64,000 bases of DNA from an uncultured delta proteobacterium. GTDB lineage: Bacteria; Myxococcota_A; Polyangia; Polyangiales; Polyangiaceae. The position numbers and the translations under genes are program-made. The notes beneath the pieces are model-generated. The model had not been told where the DNA came from, did no database searches, and saw nothing but the letters and a program-made list of their open reading frames with translations. The DNA is taken from positions 6,759,948 through 6,823,947 of the forward strand of contig CAWAIF010000003.1 in assembly GCA_963782055.1 (NCBI GenBank), given 5' to 3'. This document shows, piece by piece, positions 4,722 to 64,000 of the stretch (within the stretch, counting starts at the first letter, position 1; the number at the start of each line of letters is the position of its first letter).

Positions 4722-6746
<2,025 letters not shown>

Positions 6747-15073: not shown

Positions 15074-15542
15074 ACTGACAGAGACCTACGGGAAATCGTG
15101 GACGATGCGGAGCATCGAACGCCCAACAATTGGGCACGAGAAGACTTTTTCATCGCTTCGACCGACGACTGGTTTGCGTACCCGGAAGATCCGGTTGGCG
15201 TATGTGCAGTCGGTCACGATGGACGTTGGCTCCATCGACGACGCGGAGCAAGACTCGGTCGACGCAATTACATTCGCCAACGCGGAAAAAGAACTGTGAA
15301 GGGAGCCTTCTTCGGGCGCGATGGCCCGGACCCTCATGGTCGACGCGCAGAGGCCTTACGCGGTCGGCCCGGGAGCGTACGGGATTTGAGCGCGGTTTTC
15401 CACGAGCCTCGAGCCCTCGGGGCACCGCCGCCGGCGGTGTGGTGGTGCGCCTGAACGTCGCATGGCGGCCGCGGCGGCGGGCGGAGCGCCGGTTTCCACG
15501 GGATTTTCGCCTCGCGCGCGCACCGGTCCGTGACCGAGGGCG

Positions 15543-16671
15543 TCAGGCGGCGACGATGGCGCCGGCGATGCGGCGGATGACGGCGCTGCGGTAGTAGGGC
15601 GGAGCGCGGGCGGGCGCGCGCGGCGGGACGTCGTGTGGCTCGCCGAGCCCCTCGAGAAACCTCCGGATGCCGCGCGGCTCCTGCACCATCGCGACGAGCT
15701 TCATGCGGCCCTCGCACTTCGGGCACTTCTGCACGTCCACCGCGAAGGTGCGGGCCATGAGCTCCGCCCACGGCCAGTAGCGGGAGCGCTTCGGCTTGTC
15801 GTCGTCCTGCGCTGTCGCCGGCGCGGAGGCGGGCGGGCGGCGGACGATCTTCGGGCGCACTTTGCTGGCGGAGGCGAGCACGCCGGCGTAGCGGACGGTG
15901 TGGAAGCGCGGCGCGGGGACGGCGGCGCAGAGGCGCAAGAGGAGCGAGAGCGGGTCCATGTCGACAGCGACGGGTCCCCTGTCGCCTGGCCGCCGAAGGC
16001 GGACAGCTGCGACGGGGCTGGCCGTCGGAGAAAGGCTTCTTGAGCGCGATGCGCACCAGGTTGTCCGGTCCTCGGGCGATGCGCTCCTGGGCGACGGGCG
16101 GGCGCAGGATGTAGCGCAGGAGCGCCTCGCGCCCGGCGGCGTCGAGGGCGCCGGCGCGGGTGGCGGCGTGCAGGTTGAAGCCCTCGTCCTGGGCGCAGAG
16201 CTCGGCGCGCGAGGAGCCCGTGCCGAAGCTCGCGCCGCGGCGGAGCGCGGGGCCGGCGGGCGGGTGGCCGCGCACGCTGGTGAGCATGGGCTGCACGTCC
16301 TCGTCGTCGGCACGCTCCTCGGCGCGGGCGAGCAGGCGCTCGATGCGGCGGCGAGCGCGGGCGAGCACCTCGGCAACCTCGCTACCGCGCAGGTGGCCGA
16401 GGGCGCGGAAGCGCGGCTCGCCGTCCACCTCGACGTAGCCGCCGTCCAGGAAGACGGCGTGCACGTGCGGGTTGAGCTTGAGATCGCTCGAGGTGCGCTG
16501 CACGACGGCGACGCAGCCGCTCGCGCCCGCCCGCTTCTTGTAGAACGCAACCACCGTCGCGAGGAAGGCGCGCGTCACCTTGCCGAGCAGCGGGGCGTTG
16601 TAGGCGAGGCGATGCCGGATGGCGTGCGGCATGGTGAGCACCCACTGCCGCAGCGGGGCCTCCGGCAGCAC
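15543..16671 (-). pseudogene. IS91-family (HUH/Y2 rolling-circle) transposase, N-terminally truncated and frameshifted
   Basis: Across two frames: ...VLPEAPLRQWVLTMPHAIRHRLAY...LNPHVHAVFLDGGY (HUH)...GFNLHAATR...LLRYILRPPVAQERI...VRIALKKPFSDG, then in another frame ...FHTVRYAGVLASASKVRP...RYWPWAELMARTFAVDVQKCPKCEGRMKLVAMVQEPRGIRRFLEGLG (IS91 C-terminus). No start codon or Zn-finger N-terminus. Confidence 0.65.
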
Positions 16672-17415
16672 GACGTGATCGCCGCGGAGGACACGCGCCA
16701 CACGCGCAAGCTGCTCACGCACCACGGCGTCACCGGCAAGGAGCTCGTCGCGCTGCACGCCCACTCCACCGGGCGCGACGTGGCGAGGCTGGTGGAGCCG
16801 CTGCGCGGCGGGGAGTCGGTGGCGCTGGTGACCGACGCCGGCACGCCCGGCGTGAGCGATCCCGGCGACGCCCTGGTGCGCGGGGCGATCGAGGCGGGCG
16901 TGCGCGTCGTGCCGGTGCCGGGGCCGAGCGCGGTGCTCGCCGCGCTGGTGGCGAGCGGTCTGGGCACGGGCGGCGCCTTCCGCTTCCTCGGCTTCCTCCC
17001 GCGGTCGGGGACGGAGCGGGAGGAGGCGCTGGGCCGCGCGGCGGCGACGCCGGAGCCGGTGGTCCTCTACGAGGCGCCGGGACGTGTGCAAGATACACTG
17101 ATCGATCTGGCGCGCGCGACGCCCGCGCGGCGCGGGTGCGTCGCGCGGGAGCTCACCAAGGTGCACGAGGAGCTCACGCGCGGGACGCTGGAGGAGCTCG
17201 CGGCCGACACGCGCGAGTGGCGCGGGGAGGTGGTCATCGTGCTCGGCCCGCACCACGCGGCGGAGGCGGCGGTGGACGACGCCTCGCTGGACGTTCGCAT
17301 CGCGGAGGAGCTGGCGCGCGGCGAGCCGGCGCGCCGCATCGCCGAGCGCCTGGCCGCGTGGAGCGGGCGGCCGAAGCGCGAGGTGTACGAGCGCGTCCTG
17401 CGGAGGAAGAAGTAG
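16672..17415 (+). pseudogene. rsmI: rsmI (16S rRNA 2'-O-ribose C1402 methyltransferase), 5'-truncated; about 40 N-terminal codons including the GTLYxVxTPIGN SAM-loop are missing
   Basis: DVIAAEDTRHTRKLLTHHGVTGKELVALHAHSTGRD...ESVALVTDAGTPGVSDPG...VRVVPVPGPSAVLAALVASGL...FLGFLP...PVVLYEAPGRV...ARELTKVHEE aligns along the whole E. coli RsmI from the AAEDTR box. The preceding frame lacks the conserved N-terminal motif and abuts the IS91 fragment on the opposite strand. Confidence 0.7.
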
Positions 17416-17486
17416 GCTGGTATCCTCCCGCGGTGCGACCCGCCCTCGCTCTGCCCGCGGCCGCCTGCTCGGCGCCGCCGGATCCG

Positions 17487-17990
17487 TCAGGCGGCCCCGA
17501 CCACGGCGTGACGCTCTACGTGCACCAGTACGGCAGCGCAGCGTACACACCGAACGGCGAGACCACGAGCTGGGCCGGGATCTCGTACGTCTACGACCCG
17601 CTCGGGAATCTCCGCCAGGTGCAGTACGCCGATGTCCACGATGGCCTGCGCGAAGGTGGCGTTGTACTGCTCGACGTCGCGCCCCCTGCCAGACCGCTTC
17701 ACGATGGTCCTGGGGCGGTCGAAGACGGCCATCAGGGGCAACCCGCCGAAGGCGACGAAGTGGCGCGCCAGGCAGCGCACGACCGTCTCGACGCGCTCGT
17801 TGTCGACGAGGGAGACGCCGACGAAGCGTCGAGTACTTCAGGCGCGAGGCGAAGAAGACGAAGGTGACGTCGACGTGCCCGAAGTCATGCTGCGAGAGCT
17901 CGCCGGGCAGGCCCTCGAAGCGCACGACGGGGGCAGCGCGGGGTGGGCGGACGCCGGCGACCAGGGCGTAGAAGGCCGACTTGTGGCCCG
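17487..17990 (-). pseudogene. IS21-family IstA fragment (two frames)
   Basis: ...VRFEGLPGELSQHDFGHVDVTFVFFASRLKYS... (compare the RHEAGREGSFDFTDASELGVTIAGEAFPHLFFQLVLSFSKW of the intact copy) and FGGLPLMAVFDRPRTIVKRSG...QYNATFAQAIVDIGV in a second frame. Confidence 0.5.
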
Positions 17991-18085
17991 CGTACCCCGC
18001 CTCGGTCGCGCCCACCACGACCTGCCCTTCTGACTGCGCTCCTCGATTCTCGTGCTCGACGCTCCCTCCATCTTCGTGACCACGC

Positions 18086-18640
18086 TCACTTGGGTGGCCG
18101 CGAGCGCTCCCAGCGCGCGAGGGCGTCAGCCTCGGCGCGACGCACCGTGCGCCAAGCGAGCCCGTACTTGGTCGCGACGTGCGAGAGCGGCATCGAGTAG
18201 GCGTCGAGCGCGAGGTGGTGCTGCAGCCTCGTCGTCTGCCGCTGCTTCGGCTCCGCCCAGGGCAGTCTGTCGGTCGCGTGGGCACCGCAGCGCGGACACT
18301 TCACACGCACGGGCGCGTACTCGATCCGTGCACGCCGGCCGGCCCACGGCAGGTCCTCCCACCGTCGCGTCTTGCGACGCTCGTGGGTGCGGCCCGTCAC
18401 GATCGTCATGCACTGCCCGCAGCGCGGCGACCACCGCCGCACGAGCGACAGCACGAGCACGGCGCCCGCGGGGACATCGAAGCCGGCCACCGACTCGATG
18501 CGCTCCCCCGTCCGCGTCTCCCATCTCGCTTCATGCACGTTGAAACCTCGAAACCCGACAATCTCTGTGAGAATCTCTCGTCGCTGACCCAGCGCGGCGT
18601 GCTCCCGGTTGTTTGCACATCCAAGAGATCGCCACGGCAA
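18086..18640 (-). pseudogene. ISL3-family transposase N-terminal fragment (zf-ISL3 + HTH), truncated after about 184 aa
   Basis: ...WSPRCGQC...VRVKCPRCGAHATDRLPWAEPKQRQTTRLQHHLALDAYSMPLSHVATKYGLAWRTVRR. Same architecture as the intact ISL3 at 10435 but a different sequence. The DDE domain is absent. Confidence 0.6.
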
Positions 18641-18848
18641 TTCGGCCGCGTCGATGGGTCAGCACTCTCTCTACGCGAGGTCGGAAATGCCGCCCCTTTC
18701 ACGCGCTCGATCGGTGGTCACGCCAGCCCCCATTCGGCCGAAAAGCGGGAAAACCGCGCTCAATTCCCCTACGCTCCCGCCCCCAAATCGTGACGCCGAT
18801 ATAGCCCTCGTCACTTGACGCCACCCTGCGTCCGGGTACCTTGATCGG

Positions 18849-20321
18849 ATGCGGCACAATCTCCTTGCTTTTATCGCCTTGGCGCACGCCGCAACGATTG
18901 GCGCTGGCTGTGCGGTCGACGAAGGCAGTGCGGAGTCGCAAGCCGAGCCCTTGTCGGCGGCGGCCGCGGTCCAGACCTACATCGACACCACATTCTATTC
19001 CGATGCCGACATCCAGTATTCCTTCGCCACGACCGCAGGCGAGAAGGTGGACTGCATCGACTTCTACTCGCAGCGGTCGGTGCGCTCGCAGCTCGCGCGA
19101 GGCGCGTGGGTGCCTGACCCCGCCAGCCTGCCCGATCCGCCACCCATGCCGGGTTCCATCCCGAAGCCCCACAAGCCAGCCGGCGCATCCGTCGCGTTCG
19201 ACGGGACACTCGACGCAAACGGCCACGCCCAAAAGTGCCCGGCAGGAACCGTGCCCACCATGCGCCCGACGGTCAAGGCCATCGCGGCGGCTGGGGGCTT
19301 GGACGCCTACCGGAGCCGGCGCCCGCCGCTCCCTATGAAGGATCCGAACCAGGATCCCATTCAGCACGACTGCTACCACCAGTTCTCGCCGGGCCCCGGT
19401 TACGATCACGCTGCTGGCGTGCATATGCCGGTCGGGACCTACTATGGAGCCCTCTCATTCCTTTCGATCAATCAACCATACGTGTACAACACAAGCACTG
19501 AACACAGTCTGTCTGAGATCTGGATACAAACGGGCGATTGTGAGAGCTGGACATCTTATAATGACCCCGACAATTGCACGACTGGTGGCAATGGCGACGC
19601 CGTGCAGTCGCTCGAGGTAGGCTGGATGGTCGGGGACGACAGTCTATGGTCGAATGAACCGCAAGCTCCGCACCTGTTCGTATTCATTACGCAAGACGGA
19701 TATGATACCAAGTGGTGCTTTTCAGGGTCCTCCTACTGTTATACGGATTATCCCTACGGCAACTCCACAGCTGATGCTTGGGTCATTGCGCCCGGCGCGC
19801 CCTTTACCCTAAATCAGTCCCTGGGCCAGTACGTGCAACCGCTCGGGTCAGACCCCGCGGAGATGGCGATCCAGGTATGGAACGGCACCACCCACGGATA
19901 TCCCGCCTGGTTCGTATGGATTGATGGTCAGCTCCTCGGCTGGTATCCGGCCGACACCTTTGCCGGACAGATGCAATCGTCCGCAAGTTACATACAAGCG
20001 GGTGGCGAAGTTTATGACAGTTGGCCCAACAACGCTCACACCACAACACAGTTGGGGACGGGAATCTTTCCCTCCGTGCCACCGCCGGCCCAGACCTACC
20101 AAATGTGCTCGTACCAACGAAACCTCAGCTACATCGACTCTGGAAGCAACTATAATGACATGGCTCTCGGTTTTATTACCACGCCGCCTGCCGAGCTGGA
20201 CGACAATCGTCTGGGGATCTGCGGCTACGACGCGGGCGACTACGGATACGGCCTCGACCTAGGCGACCTGCCATCAGGTTGGGGATCGAGCTTCTCCTTC
20301 GGTGGCAACGAGATATTTTGA
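18849..20321 (+). CDS. Neprosin (DUF239, glutamic peptidase G3)-like secreted lipoprotein with N-terminal activation-peptide region
   Basis: Lipoprotein signal LAFIALAHAATIGAGC. Motifs SLEVGWMVGDD...PHLFVFITQDGYDTKWCF...GYPAWFVWIDGQLLGWYPADTFAG...ASYIQAGGEVY match DUF239 conserved blocks as I recall them (EVGW..., ...GWWL..GYWP..LF, ...GGEV). GC drops to about 50% across the gene. Confidence 0.7.
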   Translation: MRHNLLAFIALAHAATIGAGCAVDEGSAESQAEPLSAAAAVQTYIDTTFYSDADIQYSFATTAGEKVDCIDFYSQRSVRSQLARGAWVPDPASLPDPPPMPGSIPKPHKPAGASVAFDGTLDANGHAQKCPAGTVPTMRPTVKAIAAAGGLDAYRSRRPPLPMKDPNQDPIQHDCYHQFSPGPGYDHAAGVHMPVGTYYGALSFLSINQPYVYNTSTEHSLSEIWIQTGDCESWTSYNDPDNCTTGGNGDAVQSLEVGWMVGDDSLWSNEPQAPHLFVFITQDGYDTKWCFSGSSYCYTDYPYGNSTADAWVIAPGAPFTLNQSLGQYVQPLGSDPAEMAIQVWNGTTHGYPAWFVWIDGQLLGWYPADTFAGQMQSSASYIQAGGEVYDSWPNNAHTTTQLGTGIFPSVPPPAQTYQMCSYQRNLSYIDSGSNYNDMALGFITTPPAELDDNRLGICGYDAGDYGYGLDLGDLPSGWGSSFSFGGNEIF

Positions 20322-20336
20322 GACACAGGATAGCAC

Positions 20337-20666
20337 ATGTCGTATTCCAGCAAGATCATCCCTCCCTCGATGATGGTGTTGGTGTTCTTGGCATCCTCGG
20401 GTTGTAATGCCCAGGTGCTTCCACCGATGCCTGACGCAAGCAACCTCGATGCTGACACCGACGCGGCTGACGGGATGGCCCGCGAAGACGCTCAGCCCGA
20501 GGATGCTGATACCGATGCGCCACTGGAGATCCTTGACGGGGGATGTCCAAAGACTGTGCCATGCAATACGCCGCCCAACGTGGCGTGTAGAAATCGTTGC
20601 GTGTTACTTCACTGTGTGAACGGTCTTTGGAAGATTGTGCCCGACAGCGGCGTGCCTTGCCCATGA
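20337..20666 (+). CDS. Small Cys-rich lipoprotein (109 aa) in the same low-GC islet
   Basis: Signal and lipobox VLVFLASSGC, acidic linker, C-terminal C-x4-C...C-x3-C-x4-C cluster. 13 bp downstream of the neprosin-like gene. Confidence 0.5.
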   Translation: MSYSSKIIPPSMMVLVFLASSGCNAQVLPPMPDASNLDADTDAADGMAREDAQPEDADTDAPLEILDGGCPKTVPCNTPPNVACRNRCVLLHCVNGLWKIVPDSGVPCP

Positions 20667-20899
20667 CGACACGTGTCGTAGTCGCTGATCTCGGGCGATC
20701 ATAACGTCTCGCGAGCATAGGAAAGCCTATGCGCGATCGGTGAGCATAGGAAAGGGTGTAGTTCTCATCGTGACGCCTTCGCCCGCGGTTTTCGCGGTGG
20801 ACTCTGCGGCTTGATCGCGAGGACGTTCGCGAGGACGGTGACGTCGGCGTGAAAGGTCGCCGCGACGAGGGCCCACGCTTTGTCGAAGCATCTCTACGC

Positions 20900-21080
20900 C
20901 GGGGGGAGCGTCGGCAGCAGCACGAGGTACACCGTGTGCGCTTCCCCGTCGGTCAGCGCGGGCGAGCAGGCGCTCGATGCGGCGGCGCGCTCTGGCGAGG
21001 ACCTCGGCGACCTCGGTGCCGCGCAGGTGGCCGAGGGCGCGGAAGCGCGGCTCGCCGTCCACCTCGACGTAGCCGGATCC
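20900..21080 (-). pseudogene. Second partial copy of the IS91-family transposase (about 180 bp, near-identical to 16280-16450)
   Basis: Nucleotide repeat seen directly. Encodes GYVEVDGEPRFRALGHLRGTEVAEVLARARRRIERLLARA. Confidence 0.55.
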
Positions 21081-21134
21081 CGACGCTCTATGGACATTCT
21101 GGCGGCAGAGGAGGGGTTGTGTCCCGGAGGTCGA

Positions 21135-22625
21135 GCCATGACCCCGAGGGGCATGGCCAGATCCTTTGGACATAACGTGGCGGAATGATGGAAATAAATC
21201 GGGCGCCTTTCTCGTTGTTCGGTTGCGACACCAACAAGGAGAGGACGCCCGATGACGACGAGAGCTACCCGAGCCACGAGCAGCCGTCCAGACCCGAGCG
21301 AAGAGGCGAGCGCGGTGGAGGAGCAGCTGCAGCGGACCTTCACGCCGGCGGTCATCGACGAGCTTCGGGGCCGCACCGGCTACAACCCGCGGCAGCGGCG
21401 CGCCACCGCGTTCCGCCTGGTGCTCACGGTCGTCGAGGGGTTCCTCGCGGGCCAGACGCTGTCGTTCGAGTCGCTGCGGGCGATCTTCGTGAGGCGCTTC
21501 GGCTTCATGCGCCCGTGCCCGTTCCAGAAGCGGTTCAAGCAGGAGTCGGCGGCGGCGTTCTTCCGCGCGGCGCTCGAGCACCTCGTGGCGTCGGTGACGA
21601 AGGCGGCGGGCCTGGAGCTGAGCGGGCCGCTCGCCCGCTTCGAGGACGTGCGGGTCTACGACGGTACGGGGCAGCGCGTGCCACCGCGCGGGCGCGAGCT
21701 GCTGCCGGGATGCACCAAGGGCAAGGCCGGCACCAAGTGGGTGATGGGCTACAGCATCAAGACCGGCCTGCTCGAGCACGGCGTCTCCGACGCGGAGACC
21801 GCGTCGGAGACGCCGCTGTGGCGGAAGCTGGTCCCGAGCTTCACGCGCGGGGTGCTCTACCTCTTCGACCTCGGCTTTTTCGAGCGCGCTCTGTTCACGC
21901 AGGCGAAGGCTGCCGGCGCGCACGTGCTGATGCGCCTCAAGACCACGGCGAAGGTACGCGTGACCGCGCACATCTCGGAGAACGGCCACACCCCGCTCCA
22001 CAACTGGTCGCTTGGCTACTACCTGCAGAGCGTGTCGCGCAAGCGCGGGACGATCTTCGACCTCGACGTGACGTGGGGCAAGGGCAAGGACACCGTCGCA
22101 TTGCGGCTCGTGGGACTCGCGCACAAGTCGACCGTCATCCGCTGGTACCTGACCACCGTGCCGCGCAGCGTGCTCTCGCCACGGCAGATCATCCAGACCT
22201 ACCGACTCCGCTGGCTGATCGAGCTGCTCTTTCGCGAGCTGAAGCAGACCGCCGACCTCGGCCGCTCCTTCACCGCCGATCCCCACGCGATCAAGGCGCT
22301 CACCTACGGCGCGATGCTCGCCCACGCGCTCGTGCGCTCGGTCAGGATCCAGGCTGCACTCGCGCGCGACGTCCCTCTCGAGCAACTGCGCCCCCTGGCG
22401 ACGTTGCACGTCGTGCGCGCCTACGCGCGGGACCTGGTCGACGCCCTCGTCTCCCTGAGCACCGCCGCGTGGACTGCCGTCGTGACCACCGTGGGCGCGG
22501 CACTCGTCGCTCTGGCACGCGAACGACAACCTTCACGCTCCAGGAAACGAATCGCCCTCAAACTTGGGGCGATCGGTGCTTAAGAGATCGGGCATGCCCC
22601 GAGGGGCCGGGGCAATACATCCAGA
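21135..22625 (+). mobile_element. IS4-family insertion sequence
   Basis: Terminal inverted repeats containing CCCCGAGGGGCATGGCCAGATC (left) and its near-reverse-complement GATCGGGCATGCCCCGAGGGG (right). Encloses the IS4 transposase gene. Confidence 0.6.
21252..22583 (+). CDS. IS4-family (DDE_Tnp_1) transposase
   Basis: 443 aa. ...VLYLFDLGFF..., ...YRLRWLIELLFRELKQ... typical IS4 C-terminal block. Confidence 0.8.
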   Translation: MTTRATRATSSRPDPSEEASAVEEQLQRTFTPAVIDELRGRTGYNPRQRRATAFRLVLTVVEGFLAGQTLSFESLRAIFVRRFGFMRPCPFQKRFKQESAAAFFRAALEHLVASVTKAAGLELSGPLARFEDVRVYDGTGQRVPPRGRELLPGCTKGKAGTKWVMGYSIKTGLLEHGVSDAETASETPLWRKLVPSFTRGVLYLFDLGFFERALFTQAKAAGAHVLMRLKTTAKVRVTAHISENGHTPLHNWSLGYYLQSVSRKRGTIFDLDVTWGKGKDTVALRLVGLAHKSTVIRWYLTTVPRSVLSPRQIIQTYRLRWLIELLFRELKQTADLGRSFTADPHAIKALTYGAMLAHALVRSVRIQAALARDVPLEQLRPLATLHVVRAYARDLVDALVSLSTAAWTAVVTTVGAALVALARERQPSRSRKRIALKLGAIGA

Positions 22626-23262
22626 CCCCAGTCTGCAGGCCGCACCCCCAGTAGTCGCATTCCAACGCGCTATCAAGGTTACATGCCGAGCCAAGCTTCG
22701 GCCGTGGAACGGGGCAGCCAGGCACTGGAGCCTCGCACGACCACTTCATCACGGAACCCCCGTCCGCGCTGTTACCCACCTTGGCGCACCCGCAGAAACC
22801 CTCCGTGTACGAGCACAGCGCCGGGTCCGTCGGAGCACACGCCTGGCCGCGCGGGACGGACGCGAAGTCGATGGCGCACTTCGAGTCGTTGGGCGCGGTA
22901 GGACACGAGGCGTCGGCGACTCCAACGGCCCTTGGAGTCCATGTGCCGGCGTCGTCGCAAACGTAGAGCGTATTGCAAGCCAGGTTCGGATCCTCTCCGT
23001 ACTCGCATACCTTGAGAAGAGACATGCAACTGCCGCCGTCACACCCCCCTCTCGGTGGCACACAAGGTGCCCCAGCTTCAGGCGGACTCGGCGGACAGCT
23101 GAAAGTGCGGGCGTCCACTGAAGCGGAGTCCATCGCAGCTCCGTCATCGCCACGGTCAGCGGCGACATCCATACCCGCATCGTTGCTAGTGGACGACTGG
23201 TTCAAGCAGCCTACAAGCGCCATAGCAGCGGCGAACACCAAGTAGCGGCCCCGAGCAATCAT
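22558..23262 (-). CDS. Cys-rich secreted lipoprotein; 3' end lies inside the IS4 right inverted repeat and is probably altered by the insertion
   Basis: Signal MIARGRYLVFAAAMALVGC. About 20 Cys. The last codons (...GPSGHARSLKHRSPQV) are encoded by IS4 terminal sequence. Confidence 0.5.
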   Translation of the reverse strand: MIARGRYLVFAAAMALVGCLNQSSTSNDAGMDVAADRGDDGAAMDSASVDARTFSCPPSPPEAGAPCVPPRGGCDGGSCMSLLKVCEYGEDPNLACNTLYVCDDAGTWTPRAVGVADASCPTAPNDSKCAIDFASVPRGQACAPTDPALCSYTEGFCGCAKVGNSADGGSVMKWSCEAPVPGCPVPRPKLGSACNLDSALECDYWGCGLQTGVWMYCPGPSGHARSLKHRSPQV

Positions 23263-23451
23263 CTTCCCCTCCGCTCCTACCACGTCGCCAACGAGCTACC
23301 GTTGACCGGCAAGAAACCTGCTGTGAGGTCCGTCCATCCATGCCAACCAAAGTCCCAAATCGCCTGAGAAAACCGACCGTTACTGGTCGGGGCCGACACC
23401 ATCACGCGCTGATCCCCCATGCCAACGGCCGCCGGGCTGCCGACGAAAGGG

Positions 23452-24964
23452 TCTCTGCTTAGCGGCCGGAAGACGGCCCGCGGCCCGGGCGTGACGTCGA
23501 CCGTCGGAGGACTCGCCGGCTAGTGGGCAAAGACAGACGGCGGCGGCTTGCCGTGGAGGTGACTTTCGTACAGCCCGATGACGAAGCCCCGAAGCGGGAG
23601 CCGGCACTTGCGCCGCGTCTGCGTGATGCTCATCCAGTGCGCCAGGGTGGCGCTGCCGGCGGCCGAGCGCGTTCCGCCGGTCATCGCGCGGTGCCGCCCG
23701 TGGGCGCGGATGTCGCGTTCGGTCGCGTTGTTCGTGGCCGGGACGTCGGGGCGGTCGATGAAGAGCGTCACCCCCACCTTGTGTTCGTCGAGGCGCTCCT
23801 GCAGCCGGACGATGTCCGGGAACTCCACGAAGTTGGGGCTGCTGATGAGATGGCCGAGGCGGGTGCGCGCGCCCCTGCGCTGTCCGGGGTCGCCGCTCGC
23901 CGCGGCCTCCTTGCCGGCCACGTAGAATGCAATCAGCCGGTCGCGGAACTCCTCGGTCGCGGCGCACGGGGTGAGCTCGGCGATCTTCTTCGCCTCGCGG
24001 ATGGTGTGCGCACCGCAGTAGGCGTGGGTCCAGCCGTCGTGACTCGTGTACACGCCGTAGAAGTCGGTGCACAGGACTCCTTTGAAGCTCGCGCCGAGCA
24101 TCGACTCGGCGACCCACGCGCCGCGCGACAGCTCGGCGCGGAAGACCGAGACGCGGTCGGTGCGCATCAGCCACATCCAACCCGGCACGCCGTCCTGTCG
24201 ATGGCCGCTCTCGTCGAGGCCCGCCACGGGCGATGCGCGCACCGCGTCGACCAGCTCGTCGTAGCTCGGCGCCGAGCGGCGTCGCAATCGGTCGAACATC
24301 TGCGCCAGGCCGCCCGTCGTGATCGAGATGCCGAGCCACTGTCCGAGGAACGCACTGATCTTGCCCAGCGGCATGTCGCGCTCGAAGCGCAGGTCCAGCG
24401 CCATCGCCTGCACGTTGGGGCCGAACGACACCGCGGCGACGCTCTTGCCCGCCGCCGGCGCGCCCGGCAGCTTCGCGACCACGCGCTTGTGGCACACCTC
24501 GCAGCTGCCGACGTGCGCCACGTGATGCGTCTGCCGCGGCTGCACCACTGGGATGTCGGTGACGACTGTGCTGTCCGTCTCGCCCGTCGCCACGACTGCC
24601 CCGCCACAGCTGCACGTCGCCGGCATCTCGTGCACGACTTCGTCGTCGACCTGGGCCGGTGCGGCGGGCCGCGATCCGACATGGCCCACCTTGCGGCCGC
24701 GCGGCTTGCCCGAGGGCGCCCGCCGACCCTCGGAGCGCGACGTCCGCCGCTTCCCGCGCTCCCGGAACCCGCGCTTCCACTCCTCGATCTCCTTGCGCAG
24801 CTTCGCCAGCTCTTCGCGAAGCGCGGCGTTCTCCTGCTCCAGCTCCTGGATCCGCTGCTCGGGCGTCACGTGATCCGGGATGCTCCCGATCAGGTCCCAT
24901 GGAAAGAACTTCTCGCATCAGGAACGAAGAATGGACCCACAGTGTGCGACACCGCTAAGCAGAC
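23452..24964 (-). mobile_element. IS66-family single-ORF element inserted into an integrase gene
   Basis: Short inverted repeats TCTGCTTAGCGG (23453-23464) and CCGCTAAGCAGA (24950-24961) flank the transposase. Confidence 0.5.
23520..24869 (-). CDS. IS66-family transposase (TnpC-like)
   Basis: N-terminal leucine-zipper (MTPEQRIQELEQENAALREELAKLRKEIEEW), Cys cluster (CSCGG...CEVCHK), DDE core, C-terminal ...HWMSITQTRRKCRLPLRGFVIGLYESHL typical of IS66 TnpC. Confidence 0.8.
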   Translation of the reverse strand: MTPEQRIQELEQENAALREELAKLRKEIEEWKRGFRERGKRRTSRSEGRRAPSGKPRGRKVGHVGSRPAAPAQVDDEVVHEMPATCSCGGAVVATGETDSTVVTDIPVVQPRQTHHVAHVGSCEVCHKRVVAKLPGAPAAGKSVAAVSFGPNVQAMALDLRFERDMPLGKISAFLGQWLGISITTGGLAQMFDRLRRRSAPSYDELVDAVRASPVAGLDESGHRQDGVPGWMWLMRTDRVSVFRAELSRGAWVAESMLGASFKGVLCTDFYGVYTSHDGWTHAYCGAHTIREAKKIAELTPCAATEEFRDRLIAFYVAGKEAAASGDPGQRRGARTRLGHLISSPNFVEFPDIVRLQERLDEHKVGVTLFIDRPDVPATNNATERDIRAHGRHRAMTGGTRSAAGSATLAHWMSITQTRRKCRLPLRGFVIGLYESHLHGKPPPSVFAH

Positions 24965-36856: not shown

Positions 36857-37252
36857 ATGATGGAAGCGATCCGGCGCGTCTACTCGGGGGCGGAGTGGGA
36901 GAAGAAGGTGGGCTACTGCCGCGCCGTCGCCATCGGCCCGAACGTGTGGGTCGGCGGCACCGCGCCCGTCGCGCCCGGGGGCGGCACCCACGCGCCCGGT
37001 GACGCCTACGCGCAGGCCCGGCGGTGCTTCGCGATCATCGAGGCGGCGCTGCGCGAGCTGGGCGGGAGCCTCGCCGACGTCGTGCGCACGCGGATGTACG
37101 TGACCGACATCTCCCGCTGGCCGGAGATCGGCCGCGCGCACGCCGAGTGCGTGGGGCAGAACCCGCCGGCCGCGACGATGGTGGAGGTGCGGCGCCTCAT
37201 CGACCCGGACATGATCGTGGAGATCGAGGTCGACGCATATCTCGCGCGCTGA
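36857..37252 (+). CDS. RidA/YjgF-family enamine/imine deaminase
   Basis: 131 aa. ...RTRMYVTD...VEIEV typical C-terminus. Confidence 0.8.
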   Translation: MMEAIRRVYSGAEWEKKVGYCRAVAIGPNVWVGGTAPVAPGGGTHAPGDAYAQARRCFAIIEAALRELGGSLADVVRTRMYVTDISRWPEIGRAHAECVGQNPPAATMVEVRRLIDPDMIVEIEVDAYLAR

Positions 37253-56020: not shown

Positions 56021-56947
<927 letters not shown>

Positions 56948-56951
56948 CCTC

Positions 56952-57750
56952 TCACATCTCGACCTTCAGCCCCTTCGCGATCGCGGGCTGGAGCATCGAG
57001 TAGTTGGTGATGGGCGTGCCCTGGATGTTCAGGTTCTTCAGTCCCTTGGCGCCCTTGAGCGGGGTCAGGTCCTTGATGGCGGTGTTCTGGATGCTCACCT
57101 TCTGCAGCTTCGTCAGGCCCGCCAGCGGCGTCAGATCGGTGATGGGGGTGTCGTCGAGCGAGAGCTCCGTCAGGTCCCCCATCTTGGCGATGGGGGTGAG
57201 GTCGGTCACCTGCGTGTGAGACAGGTCCAGCCTGTCCATGTGCACCAGCTTCTCCAGCGGCTTGATGTTGGAGACCTTGTTGCCCGTCGCGCGCAGGGAG
57301 ACCATCGTCGTCAGGTCGGCGATGGGCTCGAGGTCGTCCAGGCCGCCCTGACCGATGAACAGGTCGTGGATGCCTGTGAACTTGGGCATCAGGCACGGGT
57401 TCAGCTCGTCGATCGGACCGTACTTGGTGAGGTTGAGCGACTTGATGGTCTTCAGCTCGCCCATGCCGATCGCGCCCTTCGGCTTCTGCAGCTTGAGGCG
57501 GACCTCCTTCTCGAGCGCATCGTCGCCCTCGAAGTCGACGACCTGCGTGCTGTCGCACTTCCACTCCTTCTTCTTCGGCGGAGGCGGCAGGGGCGGCGGC
57601 GTGTCGACCGCTGCCGCGCTGGCCGCGGCGGCCGCGGCGGCTGCGGCCGCGGAGGCCGCGGAGGCCGCCGGGTCGACCGTCGCCTTCTTGTCGTCGTCAC
57701 AACCCAGCACCGTCGCCGCCGCGATGCAGATCAGGAGGAGCGCACGCTTC
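56952..57750 (-). CDS. Leucine-rich-repeat lipoprotein
   Basis: MKRALLLICIAAATVLGC. poly-Ala/Pro linker. Repeated LxxLxLxxTxIxDLTPL units. The ORF-track extension to 59402 is rejected. Confidence 0.7.
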
Positions 57751-57833
57751 ATGGGCGCCCATCCTAAACCCAAAGGGGCGACCCCGAGCAAGAGACCTAG
57801 GCGGCGGCAAGGTGTGTCATTCTCCGCCCCGTC

Positions 57834-59177
57834 GTGACCCAGTCTCAGCCGGAGCCCCTGCGCGACGAGAGGCTGCGCGCCGTCAGTCCACTCGCCCTTC
57901 GGGCCGTCGGCCCGCGCCAGGCGCGGGACCTCAGCCGGCGTGCGGTGGTCGCGGCGTGGGCGCGGCGGCGCCCGCTTCGCAGCGCGCCGGACATCGTGGT
58001 GATCGTGGGGCTGATGCTGCTCGCGGGTCACGGCGCGTGGCGCGCCGCGTCGGTGGCCGCGGTCTTCCTCGTCGTCCTCGCGGTGAAGGTCGGCACCGCG
58101 CGCCGCGCGACCCGAGGACTGGCGACCACGCGCTCGGTGCTGGCGTCGCACGTGGTCTCCCTCCTCGGCCATGGCGTCGCGGCGGCGCTCACCGGCGGTA
58201 TCCTCAGCCCGCTCGTCCCGGGCGTGCTCGCCCACGCGGCCGCCGGGCTCATCGTCTTCGGCCGCGGCGACGAGAGCCGCGCGTCCATCGGCGTCTCCGC
58301 CGCGCTGATCGTGGCGCTGTGCTTCGTCCCGCGCGCCTGGGCCTACCCGGCGATGACGAGCGTCTTCTACGTGCTGCTGCTGGCGTACTCGGTCCTCTCC
58401 GCCCTGGTGACGATGCGCGCCGTGGCCAACGACGTGAGCGACGCCTACCGCCAGGCGCGCGCCGCGGCCGACCGCCTGCGCGAGGAGGTGCTGCTGGCGG
58501 CGAGCGAGCGCGCCAGCCGGCTGGAGACCATCAGCTCGAAGGTCGCCCACGAGCTGAAGAACCCGCTCTCGGCCATCAAGGGCCTGCTCAAGCTCGTGGA
58601 CCGCAGCCCCGGGGACGACAAGACACACGAGCGGCTGGACGTGATGCAGCGGGAGGTCGCCCGGATGGAGACCATCCTGCGCGACTACCTCTCCTTCTCG
58701 CGGCCGCTGGAGGACCTGCGCACCCAGCCGGTGGAGCTGGGGGTGCTCTGCGACGACGTCATCGCGGTGCTGGAGGCGCGCGCGGAGGCCGCGGGCGTGA
58801 ACCTCGCGCGGGGGCCATCGACGTGGACCATCGTCGGGGACCCGCGGCGCCTCAAGGAGGCGTTGCTCAACCTCGTCGGCAACGCGGTGGACGCCACGCC
58901 GGCGGGCGGCAGCGTGCGCGTCACGGTGCGCGAGCAGGACGGCGGCGCGCGCATCGTCATCGAGGACAGCGGCAAGGGCATGAGCGAGCAGGAGCTGCAG
59001 CGCCTCGGCACCCCCTTCTTCACCACGCGCGAGGGAGGCACCGGCCTGGGCGTGGTGCTGGCGAGGGCCATCGTCACCCAGCACGGCGGCACGCTCGACT
59101 ACGAGAGCGAGCTGGGGAAGGGGACGCGGGCAATCATCCGCCTCCCCTTCCGCCCGAGCCCTCCGCCCGACGCGTAG
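57834..59177 (+). CDS. Membrane sensor histidine kinase
   Basis: Multiple TM helices. H-box KVAHELKNPLSAI. N/G boxes (NLVGNAVDA, GTGLGV). Confidence 0.8.
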   Translation: MTQSQPEPLRDERLRAVSPLALRAVGPRQARDLSRRAVVAAWARRRPLRSAPDIVVIVGLMLLAGHGAWRAASVAAVFLVVLAVKVGTARRATRGLATTRSVLASHVVSLLGHGVAAALTGGILSPLVPGVLAHAAAGLIVFGRGDESRASIGVSAALIVALCFVPRAWAYPAMTSVFYVLLLAYSVLSALVTMRAVANDVSDAYRQARAAADRLREEVLLAASERASRLETISSKVAHELKNPLSAIKGLLKLVDRSPGDDKTHERLDVMQREVARMETILRDYLSFSRPLEDLRTQPVELGVLCDDVIAVLEARAEAAGVNLARGPSTWTIVGDPRRLKEALLNLVGNAVDATPAGGSVRVTVREQDGGARIVIEDSGKGMSEQELQRLGTPFFTTREGGTGLGVVLARAIVTQHGGTLDYESELGKGTRAIIRLPFRPSPPPDA

Positions 59178-59481
59178 CGGAGGGACCGCGTGGGGAGCGA
59201 CCCCGCCCAGTTCACATCGTCTCAGTCCGCACCTTGATGCTGACCACCTGGTAAAGCCGCTTCGTCGCGGGGAATGGGCTGCGGGACATCCGCGAGCAGA
59301 ATCCGGACGCCGTGCCGGTCGAGACCACTGCGCATGCGATGCCGCAAGATTCTTTGCGGCGGTGCGCGTCCAGGAGGTGGCGCGCCCACACACCCCGACC
59401 ACAACTGCAATCTATCGACGACGTATATTGACAAGCCACGCTTCCTCGTCCAGGGTGGCTCGGGCGAGGAGGCCGCCATGA

Positions 59482-59505
59482 GCAAGCAAGCAAGCAAGCA
59501 AGCAA
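59482..59505 (+). repeat. (GCAA)6 tetranucleotide tract between a strong SD+ATG (59465-59480) and the sedolisin reading frame
   Basis: Counted directly: GCAA x6, then GCG. GAGGAGG lies 6 nt upstream of ATG 59478. Confidence 0.8.
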
Positions 59506-59577
59506 GCGCAAGTTTCGGACCTTGGGGGCCGGCCTTGTCCAGCTCCAGGCAACGCGCGCCGGCGCTCCCCGCCCATC

Positions 59578-62500
59578 GTGCTGCTGCTTCTCACGATCGT
59601 GGTCGCGCTTGCCTGCAACGCGGCGCCGCCGGTCGTAGGCGTCTCCTCCGCCCCGCTCCTGCCGCTGCCGAACGTGCTCCTCGCGGAGAAGAAGCTCACC
59701 ATCGGCCCGTACACCAGCGTCTCCGGTGGTGACGTCGTCGTGCGCCAGATCGAGCCGCTGCCGCCCGATGGGCCGGCCCAGCTTGTCATCGGCAACGCGG
59801 CCCACGTCGGCACCGACGCGGGGTGCACCGCCAGCGACAACCTCATCGCGACCTCGGTCACCGTCGGCTCGGGCGCGTGCGCGGGCGATCTCCAGACCAG
59901 CTCCCTCACCAACAATGGCGGCACCGTCGGCTCGCAGTCGGCCTTCCCGGTCGCGCCGCTCCCTCCGCTCGCCATCGCGCCGCTTCCCGTGACCGGCGCC
60001 GTGGTCGATGTGGCGTCCAACACGACGCTCGCGCTCGCGCCGGGCACCTACGGTGACGTGCGCGTCCGTCACGGCGCCACGCTCCAGCTGTCCACGGGCA
60101 GCTACCAGCTCGCGAGCGTGCACATCGACGACACGGGGACCCTCACGACGACCGCAGCTGCGGTGAGCGTGACCGTCTCGGGGGATTTCGTGACCGGCCG
60201 GAATGCGATCGTACAACCAGGGGCGAGCCTGACGGCGGGCGAGCTCGATATCACCGCGGGCGGCACGCACGCCGACGTCGGTCGTAGCTCGACGATCACG
60301 GCCGTCCTCACCGCCCCGCGCGCGACCCTCACGCTGGAGCAGAGCGTCGTCGCCACGGGCGCGTTTGCCGGGTTCAACATCACCGTTGGCGATCACGTGA
60401 CGGTCACCTTCCAGGACGGGTTGCCGCAAGCTCCGGTGGGCACCCAGCTCCTGTCCGGATACTACGGGCAAAAGCTCGACGGCTCGTTCGGGGCCACGAG
60501 CCCGGTCCCGGCGGCCACCAACGTGGTGATAGACGTCGGTCTCCCGCTTCGCAACGCCGCCGCGCTGCAGACGTTCCTGCACGACGTCTCGGATCCGACG
60601 AGCCCGACGTTCCGCCAGTTCATCTCGCCGGCCACCTTCGACTCGCTGTATGGAGCGACGGCCGACGACTACGCGCTCTTGCTCCGATGGGCAGGCGACA
60701 ACGGGCTCATCGTCCTTCGCACTTTTCCCGACAACCTACTCGTCACGTTGAGCGGGACGGCGGCGCAGGTCGAGCACGCGCTCTATACCAACCTGATCTA
60801 CCGGGAGGATGCGTCGGGCGCGCAGACCTTCGTCGCCGTTGACCGGGAGCCCTCCCTGGATCTGACACCGACGGTGGACTGGGTCGGCGGAGTGAACGAC
60901 TGGAGCCCGGTGACCTACTATTCCGACTGTGAATGGACTGCCTCGCCGTTCGGGAGCGACGACGTGACCGGACAGGGGCTCGGTCCCTGGGAGTTCACGA
61001 CGGAGATCCCGGCGATGACCGCGAACGACATCCGCGAGGCGTACCTGGGCGTGAACACGGGCTGCTCGCCGCTCACCGGCGCGGGCGAGACCGTCGGGAT
61101 CCTGGAGGGCAACACCTTCAACCAGAGCGACATCGATGCCTACGTCGCGGCCCAGTCCGCCGACGTCACCATCACGTCGAACCCGCCGACGCTCGTTGAT
61201 ATCGGAGGGCTCGATGCAGTTCAGGGCGAGGCAACGCTCGACATCCAGGCCGTGATGGCGATGGCGCCCGAGGCGCACATCATCATGTACCGCGGCTCAC
61301 AGGTCGGCCATGAGTACGATGACACGTTGATGCAGGTCGCGACCGACAACCTGGTGACGGTCTTCACCAGCTCACTGGCCTACGCGGCCAACACGAAGAC
61401 CCAGCAGGCTCTCGAGAAGATGGCCTCCCAGGGCATCAGCGTCTTCCAGGCCGCGGGCGACTCCGGGGACGAAGGCGATCCGGACGGGGAGACCAACAAC
61501 CGGAAGATGGATAATCAGACGCTGGTCGGAGGCACCGAGCTCACGCTCGGGCCGGTGGCGCAGACCGGGACGCGCGATGGCAAGCCCATCTATACGTACA
61601 CGCCGCCCTACCACCTGAACGAGACGACGTGGAACCAGGGCTGCTCCGCCTTCACGGTGCTCGGAGGCAGCCAGGGGATAGTCCGAAACCCCCTTGCGTC
61701 CGACATCACGGGCGGCGGCATCATGGATGGCGTCGGGCTGGGCACACCCTGCTTTGACCCCGCCAACGTGCTCTGCGGACCGATCGCCATCCCGGACTAC
61801 CAGGCCAACACGCCCGGCGTGGTCACCGGGCCGCTCAGCTTCAACCAGGACGGCAGCGTGGACGTCCACGGGGGGAATGGGGCCTCGGCCTCGTTCCGGA
61901 ACTTCCCGGACGTGGCCATCAGCGCCGCCGGGTTCCAGCACATCATCACGCCAGACGGTGGTTCGCAGCGGGTTGTGTCCATCTCTGGCACGAGCCTCTC
62001 GGCGCCTCTATGGGCAGGTTTCGCCGCCCTCGCCGCCCAGCGCGCGCATAAACGCAATGTCCTCCCACCGGGCATGGGCCTCGGCTTCCTCAACCGCACG
62101 CTCTACGCCATCGGCGGGACGAAGGGGCAATCGCAGGATCTTTACACCCAGTCCTTCCACGACATCGCGGACGGCGTGAACAACCAGGGCGACGACGCCG
62201 TGACCACCTTCCCCAACAACCAGGGCCTCGGGCATGCGTCGGTCGTCGGGTACGATCTCACGACGGGCTGGGGCTCGCCGACCTGCGGGCTGCTGGATCT
62301 GATCAGCTCCAGCACGCCGCTGAGCCCACAGGTCACCTTCAGCTCCCTCGTTGCGCACGTCTCCAGCGGCACGGACGGCGTCAACGATGAGAGTTCGATT
62401 CAGCTCACCCTTCACGTAAACGACGTGGTGTGGAACTTTCCGCTGAAGCCCCAGGCGGACGTAGGGTGGAAGGATGGGGGGACCGCGCACGTCTTCTCCT

Positions 62501-63291
62501 TCGCGCTGCCGATGCCCATCACCCAGGACAACGTCACGGGGGCGGAGCTGACGCTCTTCCAGAACGGCCAGGGCGGCATCACCGCCGACAACTGGGACGT
62601 GGGCGGCCTGCAGGTGGAGCTCACGGGCGCGAGCGATCCCAACGTCTCCTCCGCGTGTACCCTCGACCTCAGCGGGAACGGGGACTGCGACCACACCCAG
62701 CCCAGCTGCAACCCCAACGGGACGCTCGCCGACACCAGCGACACAGGCGTCGTGCGGCTGAGCGAGAACGACGGGTGCGGGACGCTGCCGTGCTCCAGCG
62801 GGCAGGGGGGCATCGTGTTCTTCGGGAGCGATCCGCTGAACGGGCGATGCCCGGCGTTCGCCGGAACCGGCGCGATCACCCAGTTCGACCACCTGGAGTT
62901 CGTGATCGGCACGGGCGACGACGATCTGCGCGCGGATAGTGAGCTCGACTACGCCGTGTTCGACTCGAATAATGGGCCGCTAGCGAACGGGGCACTTCAC
63001 ATGGCCAATTCGGAGCCGCTCTGGGACAACTACACTGAGCACGGCGCGCCCGCTCTCGCGATGCCCATCTCGCCCATGAACGTAGCCGATGCGAGTACCA
63101 TCCGGCTCCAGTTCACGCCCGGCGGTGGCGTCGACGAGTGGCACATGGAGTCGCTGCAGATCTACGGGCGTTCCGACAATAGCGAGGCGGGCCAGTACGT
63201 GTGCCTCTTCAAGGGCAACGGTACTCCCGAGCAAGTGTTCAACAGCGGGAGCAGCACGCTTACCGTGACGGTCGGCTCCGGCTGCCCTTGA
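59578..63291 (+). CDS. Secreted sedolisin (S53) family serine peptidase with pro-kumamolisin-type activation domain and C-terminal beta-rich extension
   Basis: Pro-domain (...FRQFISPATFDSLYGAT...LIVL...VTLSGT). Catalytic-domain blocks incl. ...ATLDIQAVMAMAP... and Ser motif SGTSLSAPLWAGFAALA. Annotated start is GTG 59578, which gives a signal peptide without a charged n-region. Confidence 0.8.
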   Translation: MLLLLTIVVALACNAAPPVVGVSSAPLLPLPNVLLAEKKLTIGPYTSVSGGDVVVRQIEPLPPDGPAQLVIGNAAHVGTDAGCTASDNLIATSVTVGSGACAGDLQTSSLTNNGGTVGSQSAFPVAPLPPLAIAPLPVTGAVVDVASNTTLALAPGTYGDVRVRHGATLQLSTGSYQLASVHIDDTGTLTTTAAAVSVTVSGDFVTGRNAIVQPGASLTAGELDITAGGTHADVGRSSTITAVLTAPRATLTLEQSVVATGAFAGFNITVGDHVTVTFQDGLPQAPVGTQLLSGYYGQKLDGSFGATSPVPAATNVVIDVGLPLRNAAALQTFLHDVSDPTSPTFRQFISPATFDSLYGATADDYALLLRWAGDNGLIVLRTFPDNLLVTLSGTAAQVEHALYTNLIYREDASGAQTFVAVDREPSLDLTPTVDWVGGVNDWSPVTYYSDCEWTASPFGSDDVTGQGLGPWEFTTEIPAMTANDIREAYLGVNTGCSPLTGAGETVGILEGNTFNQSDIDAYVAAQSADVTITSNPPTLVDIGGLDAVQGEATLDIQAVMAMAPEAHIIMYRGSQVGHEYDDTLMQVATDNLVTVFTSSLAYAANTKTQQALEKMASQGISVFQAAGDSGDEGDPDGETNNRKMDNQTLVGGTELTLGPVAQTGTRDGKPIYTYTPPYHLNETTWNQGCSAFTVLGGSQGIVRNPLASDITGGGIMDGVGLGTPCFDPANVLCGPIAIPDYQANTPGVVTGPLSFNQDGSVDVHGGNGASASFRNFPDVAISAAGFQHIITPDGGSQRVVSISGTSLSAPLWAGFAALAAQRAHKRNVLPPGMGLGFLNRTLYAIGGTKGQSQDLYTQSFHDIADGVNNQGDDAVTTFPNNQGLGHASVVGYDLTTGWGSPTCGLLDLISSSTPLSPQVTFSSLVAHVSSGTDGVNDESSIQLTLHVNDVVWNFPLKPQADVGWKDGGTAHVFSFALPMPITQDNVTGAELTLFQNGQGGITADNWDVGGLQVELTGASDPNVSSACTLDLSGNGDCDHTQPSCNPNGTLADTSDTGVVRLSENDGCGTLPCSSGQGGIVFFGSDPLNGRCPAFAGTGAITQFDHLEFVIGTGDDDLRADSELDYAVFDSNNGPLANGALHMANSEPLWDNYTEHGAPALAMPISPMNVADASTIRLQFTPGGGVDEWHMESLQIYGRSDNSEAGQYVCLFKGNGTPEQVFNSGSSTLTVTVGSGCP

Positions 63292-63299
63292 GCGGCGAA

Positions 63300-63653
63300 A
63301 TGTCGTGCCCGAACCGATGGCTCCACCCCGTCTATTGCGCGATCGCTTCAGTCGCGCTTGTGGCGTGTGGTGGGCGGACGGACCTTGGTCACGACCAGCT
63401 TCATGACGCCGGCGACGTGCTCGATGGCGGCGCCCCTGTGGACGCGGCGGTGCCCGACGTCGTCGCCACACCCTACTGCGCCACGCGCGTAGGCCCCGTG
63501 CCGTCCTGCGACGCAGGTGCCGACGCAGGGTACGTCATGCGATGCATCAAGGGAACAGAGTGTCGGTTATTCTTGGGTGTATGGGGTTGCTGTTACCCGA
63601 ATTACAGGGGCTGTGTCAACGCTACTCCTACGGATGCGCCAGGTTGTCAATGA
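63300..63653 (+). CDS. Cys-rich small lipoprotein
   Basis: MSCPNRWLHPVYCAIASVALVACGG. Confidence 0.5.
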   Translation: MSCPNRWLHPVYCAIASVALVACGGRTDLGHDQLHDAGDVLDGGAPVDAAVPDVVATPYCATRVGPVPSCDAGADAGYVMRCIKGTECRLFLGVWGCCYPNYRGCVNATPTDAPGCQ

Positions 63654-63877
63654 TGGCGGCGAGCACGAGCGTAGCCCCGGGTGGGACCGTCCAGCTCCAG
63701 TTCACGCCGGGTGGCGGCGTCGACGAGTGGCACATGGAGTCGCTGCAGGTCTACGGGCGCTCGGATGCCGAATCGGGCCAGTACGTCTGTCTTTTCAAGG
63801 GCAATGGCACTCCAGAGCAAGTGTTCAACAGCGGAAGCACCACGCTCACCGTGACGGTCGGCACCGGCTGCCCCTGA
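63650..63877 (+). CDS. Stand-alone copy (75 aa) of the sedolisin C-terminal domain (...QLQFTPGGGVDEWHMESLQVYGRSD...YVCLFKGNGTPEQVFNSGSTTLTVTVGTGCP)
   Basis: About 85% aa identity to sedolisin residues about 1165-1237. ATG overlaps the upstream TGA (ATGA). Confidence 0.5.
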   Translation: MMAASTSVAPGGTVQLQFTPGGGVDEWHMESLQVYGRSDAESGQYVCLFKGNGTPEQVFNSGSTTLTVTVGTGCP

Positions 63878-63892
63878 GCCCGACGATGTCGA

Positions 63893-64000
63893 ACCGCGAC
63901 TGGAAGCTAGCGGCGCACCCCATCTGTCGTGCGATCGTGGCAGTTGCACTTGCCGTATGTGCATGTGGCGGCCGGACAGATCTTGGCCGCGGCGAGGTTG
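63893..64000 (+). CDS. Second copy of the small lipoprotein gene (partial, runs off window)
   Basis: MSNRDWKLAAHPICRAIVAVALAVCACGGRTDLG parallels 63300-63653. Confidence 0.4.

Follow-up and report, generated by a model that had tools for sequence, protein, structure and literature searches.

The 64,000-nt stretch of contig CAWAIF010000003.1 analysed here (hereafter the window) contains a gene for a sedolisin-like protease and, at the 5′ end of this gene, a perfect tetranucleotide tract, (GCAA)6, placed directly behind a candidate start codon. The protease open reading frame (ORF; 59578–63291, plus strand) comprises 1237 codons, is intact and strongly coding, and specifies a predicted lipoprotein of the S53 (sedolisin/kumamolisin-like) type. 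Direct reading of the DNA, verified by script, gives the local order GGGC GAGGAGG CCGCC ATG A (GCAA)6 GC GCAA G on the plus strand. The Shine-Dalgarno (SD)-like GAGGAGG (59466–59472) is separated by the 5-nt spacer CCGCC from the ATG (59478–59480), a candidate native start that currently lies +1 out of frame relative to the protease ORF. The overlapping TGA (59479–59481) is the upstream stop of the protease frame, which is open from 59482 onwards. An earlier note on this DNA had described these elements as GAGGAGG-N6-ATG at 59465–59480; the motif and the ATG are indeed there, but GAGGAGG starts at 59466 and the spacer measures 5 nt.

The position of the (GCAA)6 tract just after the ATG, at 59482–59505 on the plus strand, had also been given in that note and is borne out by direct reading, by script and by Tandem Repeats Finder, which reports (AGCA)6.8 with 100% matches at 59481–59507 (6.75 units of AGCA when this interval is counted exactly). 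Directly 3′ of the six units stand GC and one further GCAA. Under a first-order Markov model, perfect tetranucleotide tracts of at least six units are expected 3.9e-6 times per 64 kb and 4e-4 times per 7 Mb, and (GCAA)6 is the sole non-triplet simple sequence repeat (SSR) of at least six units within the window. The tract is a genuine feature of this DNA, not a chance one, and it codes for SKQA repeats whichever frame is read.

The signals upstream of the tract are likewise rare. A strong SD motif, GAGGAGG with an ATG 4–9 nt downstream, is found in only two cases on both strands of the window (128 kb of strand). The −35-like hexamer TTGACA, a putative promoter element, has only two copies on the plus strand of the 64 kb, one of them (59428–59433) located 50 nt 5′ of the ATG. 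Seventeen nucleotides after it stands CAGGGT, a weak −10 element retaining only A2 and T6. A scan of 59000–59800 for consensus promoters and terminators made no call, the TTGACA at 59428 being missed for its poor −10. The presence of a known leader or riboswitch was considered and rejected, as an Rfam scan of 59100–59750 gave no credible match.

With six units, the ATG opens a dead-end ORF of 84 codons (59478–59732, plus strand; stop at 59730–59732), which extends 155 nt into the protease ORF and whose codon usage is strongly off-frame 3′ of 59578. The locus was rebuilt in silico with 3–11 units. Tracts of 5, 8 and 11 units yielded fused products of 1269, 1273 and 1277 aa starting with MSKQASKQ, those of 3, 6 and 9 units gave 80–88 aa, and those of 4, 7 and 10 units gave 50–58 aa. 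This simulation confirms the previous statement that the ATG is one base out of frame and that loss of one unit or gain of two fuses it to the protease. The locus thereby presents three of the features by which contingency loci are recognized: a perfect tract exceeding chance expectation, a 4-nt unit that separates a start codon from the main part of a long ORF, and, in silico, a unit number that toggles between a full-length product and an early stop.

The assignment of the protease as a sedolisin is upheld by domain, structural and residue evidence. The pro-kumamolisin activation domain (60499–60858, plus strand; PF09286, E = 7e-19, Pfam) is followed by the catalytic core (61228–61995, plus strand) with E551 (61228), D555 (61240), the oxyanion residue D628 (61459) and S806 (61993); the Pfam match to the subtilase domain PF00082 is weak (E = 5e-7). 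A search of the PDB with the single protease sequence gave no match, whereas a family profile built from the protease and ten homologues matched pro-kumamolisin (1T1E, E = 9e-49) and human TPP1 (3EE6, E = 1e-26). E551, D555, D628 and S806 are invariant across the 11 homologues and align with the kumamolisin motifs GEvxLDiE and GTS. The protein thus has what defines a sedolisin (MEROPS S53), namely an activation domain joined to a subtilisin-fold domain, with Glu, Asp and Ser as catalytic residues and an oxyanion Asp, all of which it has in common with kumamolisin and TPP1. It differs from kumamolisin in its length of 1237 aa, which includes an N-terminal beta-helix-like region of ~300 residues (weak DUF7305 match) and a C-terminal extension of ~330 residues, and in its lipoprotein-type export signal. 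As the 1237-codon ORF is intact and the catalytic residues are invariant, any inactivation of this gene should be either recent or reversible.

The first ATG, GTG or TTG codon of the protease frame after 59482 is the GTG at 59578, which the annotation uses and which has no competitor in this frame. The h-region LLLLTIVVALA and a lipobox Cys at 59614–59616 come next (the whole segment being 59578–59616, plus strand); no SD motif precedes the GTG. The public 1237-aa model (P0001) is not independent evidence for this start, because GTG 59578 was the sole one open to the annotator. The N-terminus of the GTG product, MLLLLTIVVALAC, contains no Lys or Arg (K/R) and has its lipobox Cys at residue 13, in agreement with the earlier observation that this signal peptide lacks a positive n-region. 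Four full-length homologues (P0008–P0011) and the window lipoproteins encoded at 48310, 50250 and 51609 carry K/R in the n-region, with the Cys at 16–25 (44 in P0010 as annotated). By this comparison, the GTG-initiated signal peptide is abnormal and predicted to be export-defective.

Under the PROSITE rule, the n-region of a lipoprotein signal peptide includes one K/R or more, and the Cys falls at residue 15–35. Neither candidate N-terminus conforms to this: the GTG form has Cys 13 and no K/R, and the ATG-fused form has K/R with the Cys at 45 or 49. The stretch IVVALA preceding the Cys fits a PROSITE PS00013-type lipobox pattern, and P0008–P0011 have their lipobox Cys at the aligned position. 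The protease is therefore a predicted lipoprotein and not a substrate of signal peptidase I (SPase I); instead of the AxA cleavage site proposed previously, the sequence VALA followed by Cys forms a lipobox, as in the homologues. A Tat signal was rejected by inspection, since no hydrophobic residue follows RR in RRRSPP and the h-region is very hydrophobic.

A scan for (GCAA)6 over 185,579 species genomes returned at least 120 loci. Among the matches listed, tracts of at least six units are taxonomically widespread, occurring in Firmicutes, Bacteroidota, Burkholderiales, Streptomyces, Dehalococcoidia and Binatia, and in about 15 of 120 an ATG precedes the tract by no more than 30 nt and a long ORF follows it. 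Myxococcota account for three of the listed loci. The first (L039; contig JAVEWA010000248.1 of a Polyangia metagenome-assembled genome (MAG), 6295–6346, minus strand) holds (GCAA)10 in frame, starting 11 nt after an ATG, at the beginning of a 1462-aa Kelch/TSP3 protein; its N-terminus reads MERT(QASK)3Q-VAHHKLRSSPSLGFLVLV, in full form MERTQASKQASKQASKQVAHHKLRSSPSLGFLVLVMTVTWMLW. The second (L120; contig JAYRVK010000199.1 of a Sandaracinaceae MAG, 5692–5736, plus strand) has (GCAA)6 in frame, 20 nt downstream of an ATG; its product, a secreted protein rich in Cys, runs off the contig end and begins with MKQRVRT(QASK)2SPLLALGATL (also MKQRVRTQASKQASKSPLLALGATLTSTILMGSTC). In the third (L002, a Polyangiales MAG) the tract is apparently intergenic.

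Judging from these sequences, a GCAA tract coding for Lys-containing SKQA repeats in the n-region of a signal peptide recurs in Polyangia. The in-frame tracts in the signal peptides of L039 and L120 make ATG 59478 plausible as the native start of the protease gene and are the strongest new support for it. Both share with the window locus the GCAA unit, the bacterial class, the placement of the tract between the ATG and the h-region, and a large secreted or lipid-anchored product. They differ in being in frame (ON) in their assemblies and in having linkers of 2–11 residues as against 23. Their proteins (Kelch/TSP3 and Cys-rich) are unrelated to sedolisin and the loci themselves are unstudied, making them parallels and not precedents.

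The same scan recovered a double tract in a cultured bacterium with 69% GC, Roseateles aquatilis CCUG 48205 (L040; minus strand, ~1443–1520 in reverse-complement orientation). Here (GCAA)7 abuts (TCAA)7; an ATG stands 31 nt before the pair, and an open frame of 570 codons follows.

We hypothesize that ATG 59478, served by GAGGAGG and by the TTGACA located 50 nt upstream, is the most likely native start of the sedolisin-like lipoprotein gene, with (GCAA)n forming codons 2–9 within the n-region of the signal peptide. In the 6-unit allele, ribosomes starting at the ATG would enter the 84-codon dead-end frame and cross the GTG. The protease would then be absent, or its synthesis would depend on GTG 59578 alone and yield a product with a badly impaired export signal; expression would be OFF or strongly reduced. 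Loss of one unit or gain of two by slipped-strand mispairing would restore a precursor of 1269 or 1273 aa, respectively, provided with Lys/Arg, an h-region and a lipobox. Accordingly, the native 5′ end of the protease gene would carry a candidate translational SSR switch, here captured while OFF. We give this reading a tentative probability of roughly 0.45; we infer that the ATG is used, that tract length may change at a useful rate and that switching may be adaptive. The phase-variation switch proposed in the earlier note thus retains as support its geometry, the abnormal GTG signal peptide, the nearby TTGACA and the Polyangia parallels, while several of the arguments offered for it turn out weaker than stated.

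A number of observations, set out here and in the following paragraphs, weigh against such a switch. Some unit-number change can fuse any out-of-frame ATG to a downstream frame, and this possibility is uninformative. The frame was said to run on with no stop intervening, and it is indeed open, but an open stretch of 32 codons has a probability of 0.68 at this composition and lends no support. Nor is the fused signal peptide a textbook one, as had been claimed: K/R residues and an h-region are present, yet its n-region of 31 residues is unusually long and places the Cys at 45. The richness in Arg is an effect of composition (70% GC), the linker between tract and GTG having R+K counts of 4, 5 and 2 in the three frames. 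SD motifs are not universal at the gene starts of this genome, and the lack of one at the GTG is weak evidence against that codon.

The same linker (59506–59577, plus strand, 72 nt; open in the protease frame as AQVSDLGGRPCPAPGNARRRSPPI) was scored for codon usage as log-odds trained on the window, with 16 window gene starts and non-coding windows as reference. Its 24 codons reach −19.8 bits when read in the protease frame and −15.8 bits in the ATG frame, compared with −14 ± 15 for non-coding DNA and +18.7 ± 18.8 for the 16 gene starts. Both frames are non-coding-like, such that codon usage does not discriminate between them, and the coding signal sets in only at ~59548–59578, near the GTG. 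This pattern agrees with an alternative in which GTG 59578 is the true start and the SD-ATG-(GCAA)6 arrangement is a leader with an upstream ORF (uORF) or a non-functional accident. Tract length would then at most tune translation through the run of uORF ribosomes across the GTG, leaving the N-terminus of the protease unaffected. Starts lacking an SD motif at other window genes fit this alternative as well.

The placement of GCAA tracts elsewhere points in the same direction. Many other loci among the matches listed have the tract in a promoter or 5′ untranslated region (UTR) and not in an ORF. The tracts of L103, L109, L052 and L073 lie just 3′ of TTGACA...TATAAT-like promoters, and those of L119 (before a gene for a Tat-signal protein) and L024 (before a type IV pilin gene) lie in the 5′ UTR. 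The GTG start would, however, leave the protease with a 12-residue signal peptide that has neither n-region nor charge, unlike every homologue and window lipoprotein compared. It would also require an 84-codon uORF overlapping the main start by 155 nt, which is an unusual arrangement, and the two Polyangia parallels hold the tract in frame inside the signal peptide. Taken together, we regard initiation at GTG 59578 as a serious alternative, albeit a somewhat unlikely one.

Comparison with Haemophilus influenzae supports the geometry of an SSR switch at ATG 59478 more readily than its rate. Tetranucleotide tracts in H. influenzae are located at or just 3′ of the start codon, and GCAA codes there for a positively charged hydrophilic peptide (PMC2651432). 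Its phase-variable loci (lic1A/lic2A with CAAT, hgp with CCAA, mod with AGTC, and GCAA loci) resemble the window locus in the perfect 4-nt tract directly after the start codon, in unit changes that shift the frame of the start codon relative to a long ORF, and in off frames that stop early. A hydrophilic, positively charged N-terminal peptide encoded by GCAA and a surface or exported product are further points of likeness. The window locus differs in its six units, as against the 17–38 measured in H. influenzae, in having no known length variants and in a tract-to-ORF linker that is not coding-like. Its host also differs, being an apparently free-living relative of Polyangia with 70% GC and not a host-adapted pathogen. 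A search of the literature on tetranucleotide phase variation in myxobacteria found nothing relevant.

The switching rate in H. influenzae is linear in tract length over 17–38 units (u = 2e-5 L − 2e-4), and the fit extrapolates to zero near 10 units (PMC3546556). The six units of the window lie below the range in which rates were measured, and on this analysis the tract should be a slow switch at best. An extrapolated rate of about zero below ~10 units would suit another explanation, in which the ATG is native but slippage has produced the 6-unit state just once, leaving a nascent pseudogene or a loss of function in the laboratory or the lineage, with reversion too rare to matter. The tract is the only one of its kind in 64 kb, with no sign of a repertoire of repeat-controlled genes, and no orthologue was found in any other genome searched, which suggests that the gene is accessory and dispensable. 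Against this stands the 3.7-kb ORF itself, which shows no decay, so that the event would have to be very recent. Moreover, no site of the gene is more mutable than the perfect, uninterrupted tract, and an in-frame tract of six units is retained in L120. We consider a single, effectively irreversible frameshift quite unlikely.

No second copy of the locus was available to show the tract at another length. A search of 5.8 billion proteins returned the protease itself and homologues of at most 44% identity, the closest being N-terminally truncated, and the protease cluster has a single member. The N-terminal 473 aa found no related locus among genome contigs, and a flank pattern allowing 2–9 units found no match in metagenome contigs. 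Exact-product look-ups with P0001, the 84-aa and 152-aa upstream ORFs, two alternative protease starts and the AMP-ligase recovered no second copy. Databases contain no close relative of this organism; even the conserved acyl-CoA ligase of the window has no match above 75% identity, the best named one coming from a Polyangiaceae MAG. The look-up with the product of the upstream histidine kinase gene did locate a Logan contig of run ERR11571143 (L121), from the same or a near-identical organism. This independent contig corresponds to window positions 56601–59193, differing over 2593 nt at position 57354 only, and stops short of the ATG by 285 nt, 16 nt past the kinase stop codon. No other assembly spans the tract, and length polymorphism, which a switch would entail, is without support.

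The break of this contig close to the locus implies some heterogeneity or low coverage there. It could be read as a hint that the assembly miscounts the units or gives the consensus of a mixed population, the true number being 5 or 8 and the gene intact. The assembly of the genome as a single 7.0-Mb contig, which implies long reads, was counted in favour of this possibility. Long-read errors, however, cluster in homopolymers and not in whole 4-nt units. The assembly also seems to be of good quality: the window genes checked all match their domains over the full length, and more than 10 kb of coding sequence inspected for frameshifts contained none. A miscounted tract seems to us very unlikely.

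The 6-unit allele could in principle also express the protease through translational recoding, whereby ribosomes from the ATG shift by +1 (e.g., through +4 re-pairing of the peptidyl-tRNA) and make a low level of fused product. The geometry of the tract, in which each codon recurs 4 nt further on in the +1 frame, is the sole argument in favour. The region lacks any known slippery heptamer, stimulatory structure or slow codon, 59100–59750 has no Rfam match, and recoding at tetranucleotide tracts is, to our knowledge, without precedent. Such a mechanism appears extremely improbable.

The gene preceding the protease locus on the plus strand encodes the histidine kinase (HisKA, HATPase_c; 57834–59177), with a 300-nt spacer between it and the ATG. 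The minus-strand ORFs 56952–59402 and 59212–60582 were rejected as shadows of the plus-strand genes; a leucine-rich repeat (LRR) gene at ~56952–57800 (minus strand) is the exception among these shadow ORFs. Just 3′ of the protease gene, at 63619–63650, both minus-strand copies of TTGACA in the window lie 31 nt apart, near a small minus-strand ORF (63647–63964). The gene content of the window fits Myxococcota/Polyangia, as it includes a Ser/Thr kinase, an FHA-GGDEF protein, MopE-like repeats and a protein resembling the major vault protein (MVP). The last of these (30989–33013, 674 aa) contains major vault protein shoulder and repeat domains (PF11978, E = 4e-27), a family unusual for bacteria.

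Two further repeats occur elsewhere in the window. At 812–835, (CCGG)4 is followed by C8 between two minus-strand genes, combining a self-complementary sequence with a homopolymer slippage site; it lies downstream of a membrane protein gene (854–1207) and ~130 nt upstream of the next start at ~686. At 36808–36849, a 14-nt unit, CCCCCGCCTTGTGA, forms a perfect 3-copy tandem repeat that spans the end of a GAF-domain gene (36309–36821) and the spacer before a RidA/L-PSP gene (36857–37252). An insertion-sequence cluster occupies 7518–24917 and comprises IS21-like istA/istB (7518–9781), an ISL3 transposase (10435–11691), an IS4-type DDE transposase (21252–22583) and an IS66 transposase (23520–24869, minus strand). 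Genes for DUF4238 and DUF7380/DUF4209 proteins and for a neprosin-like peptidase (18912–20321) are located between the insertion sequences.

Repeat-driven phase variation belongs to the textbook biology of host-adapted pathogens, and free-living, high-GC soil bacteria have received hardly any attention in this respect. For the protease itself, the public annotation starts at the GTG with an N-terminus predicted to be export-defective, and the 5′ end is probably frameshifted at the repeat. This is relevant to attempts to express or model the enzyme, as well as to pseudogene counts in this genome. If the tract does switch, a relative of the social myxobacteria would turn a shared and costly extracellular protease ON and OFF in a stochastic, heritable manner, which bears on bet-hedging and cheater dynamics. 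We further speculate, while judging it unlikely, that GCAA tracts placed by Polyangia in signal peptides serve as true contingency loci for large proteins that are secreted or lipid-anchored, with the window locus OFF and L039 and L120 ON. Were that the case, clonal social soil bacteria would stochastically switch costly extracellular goods such as an S53 protease, and a repertoire of repeat-controlled genes would exist in a free-living, high-GC, non-pathogenic lineage.

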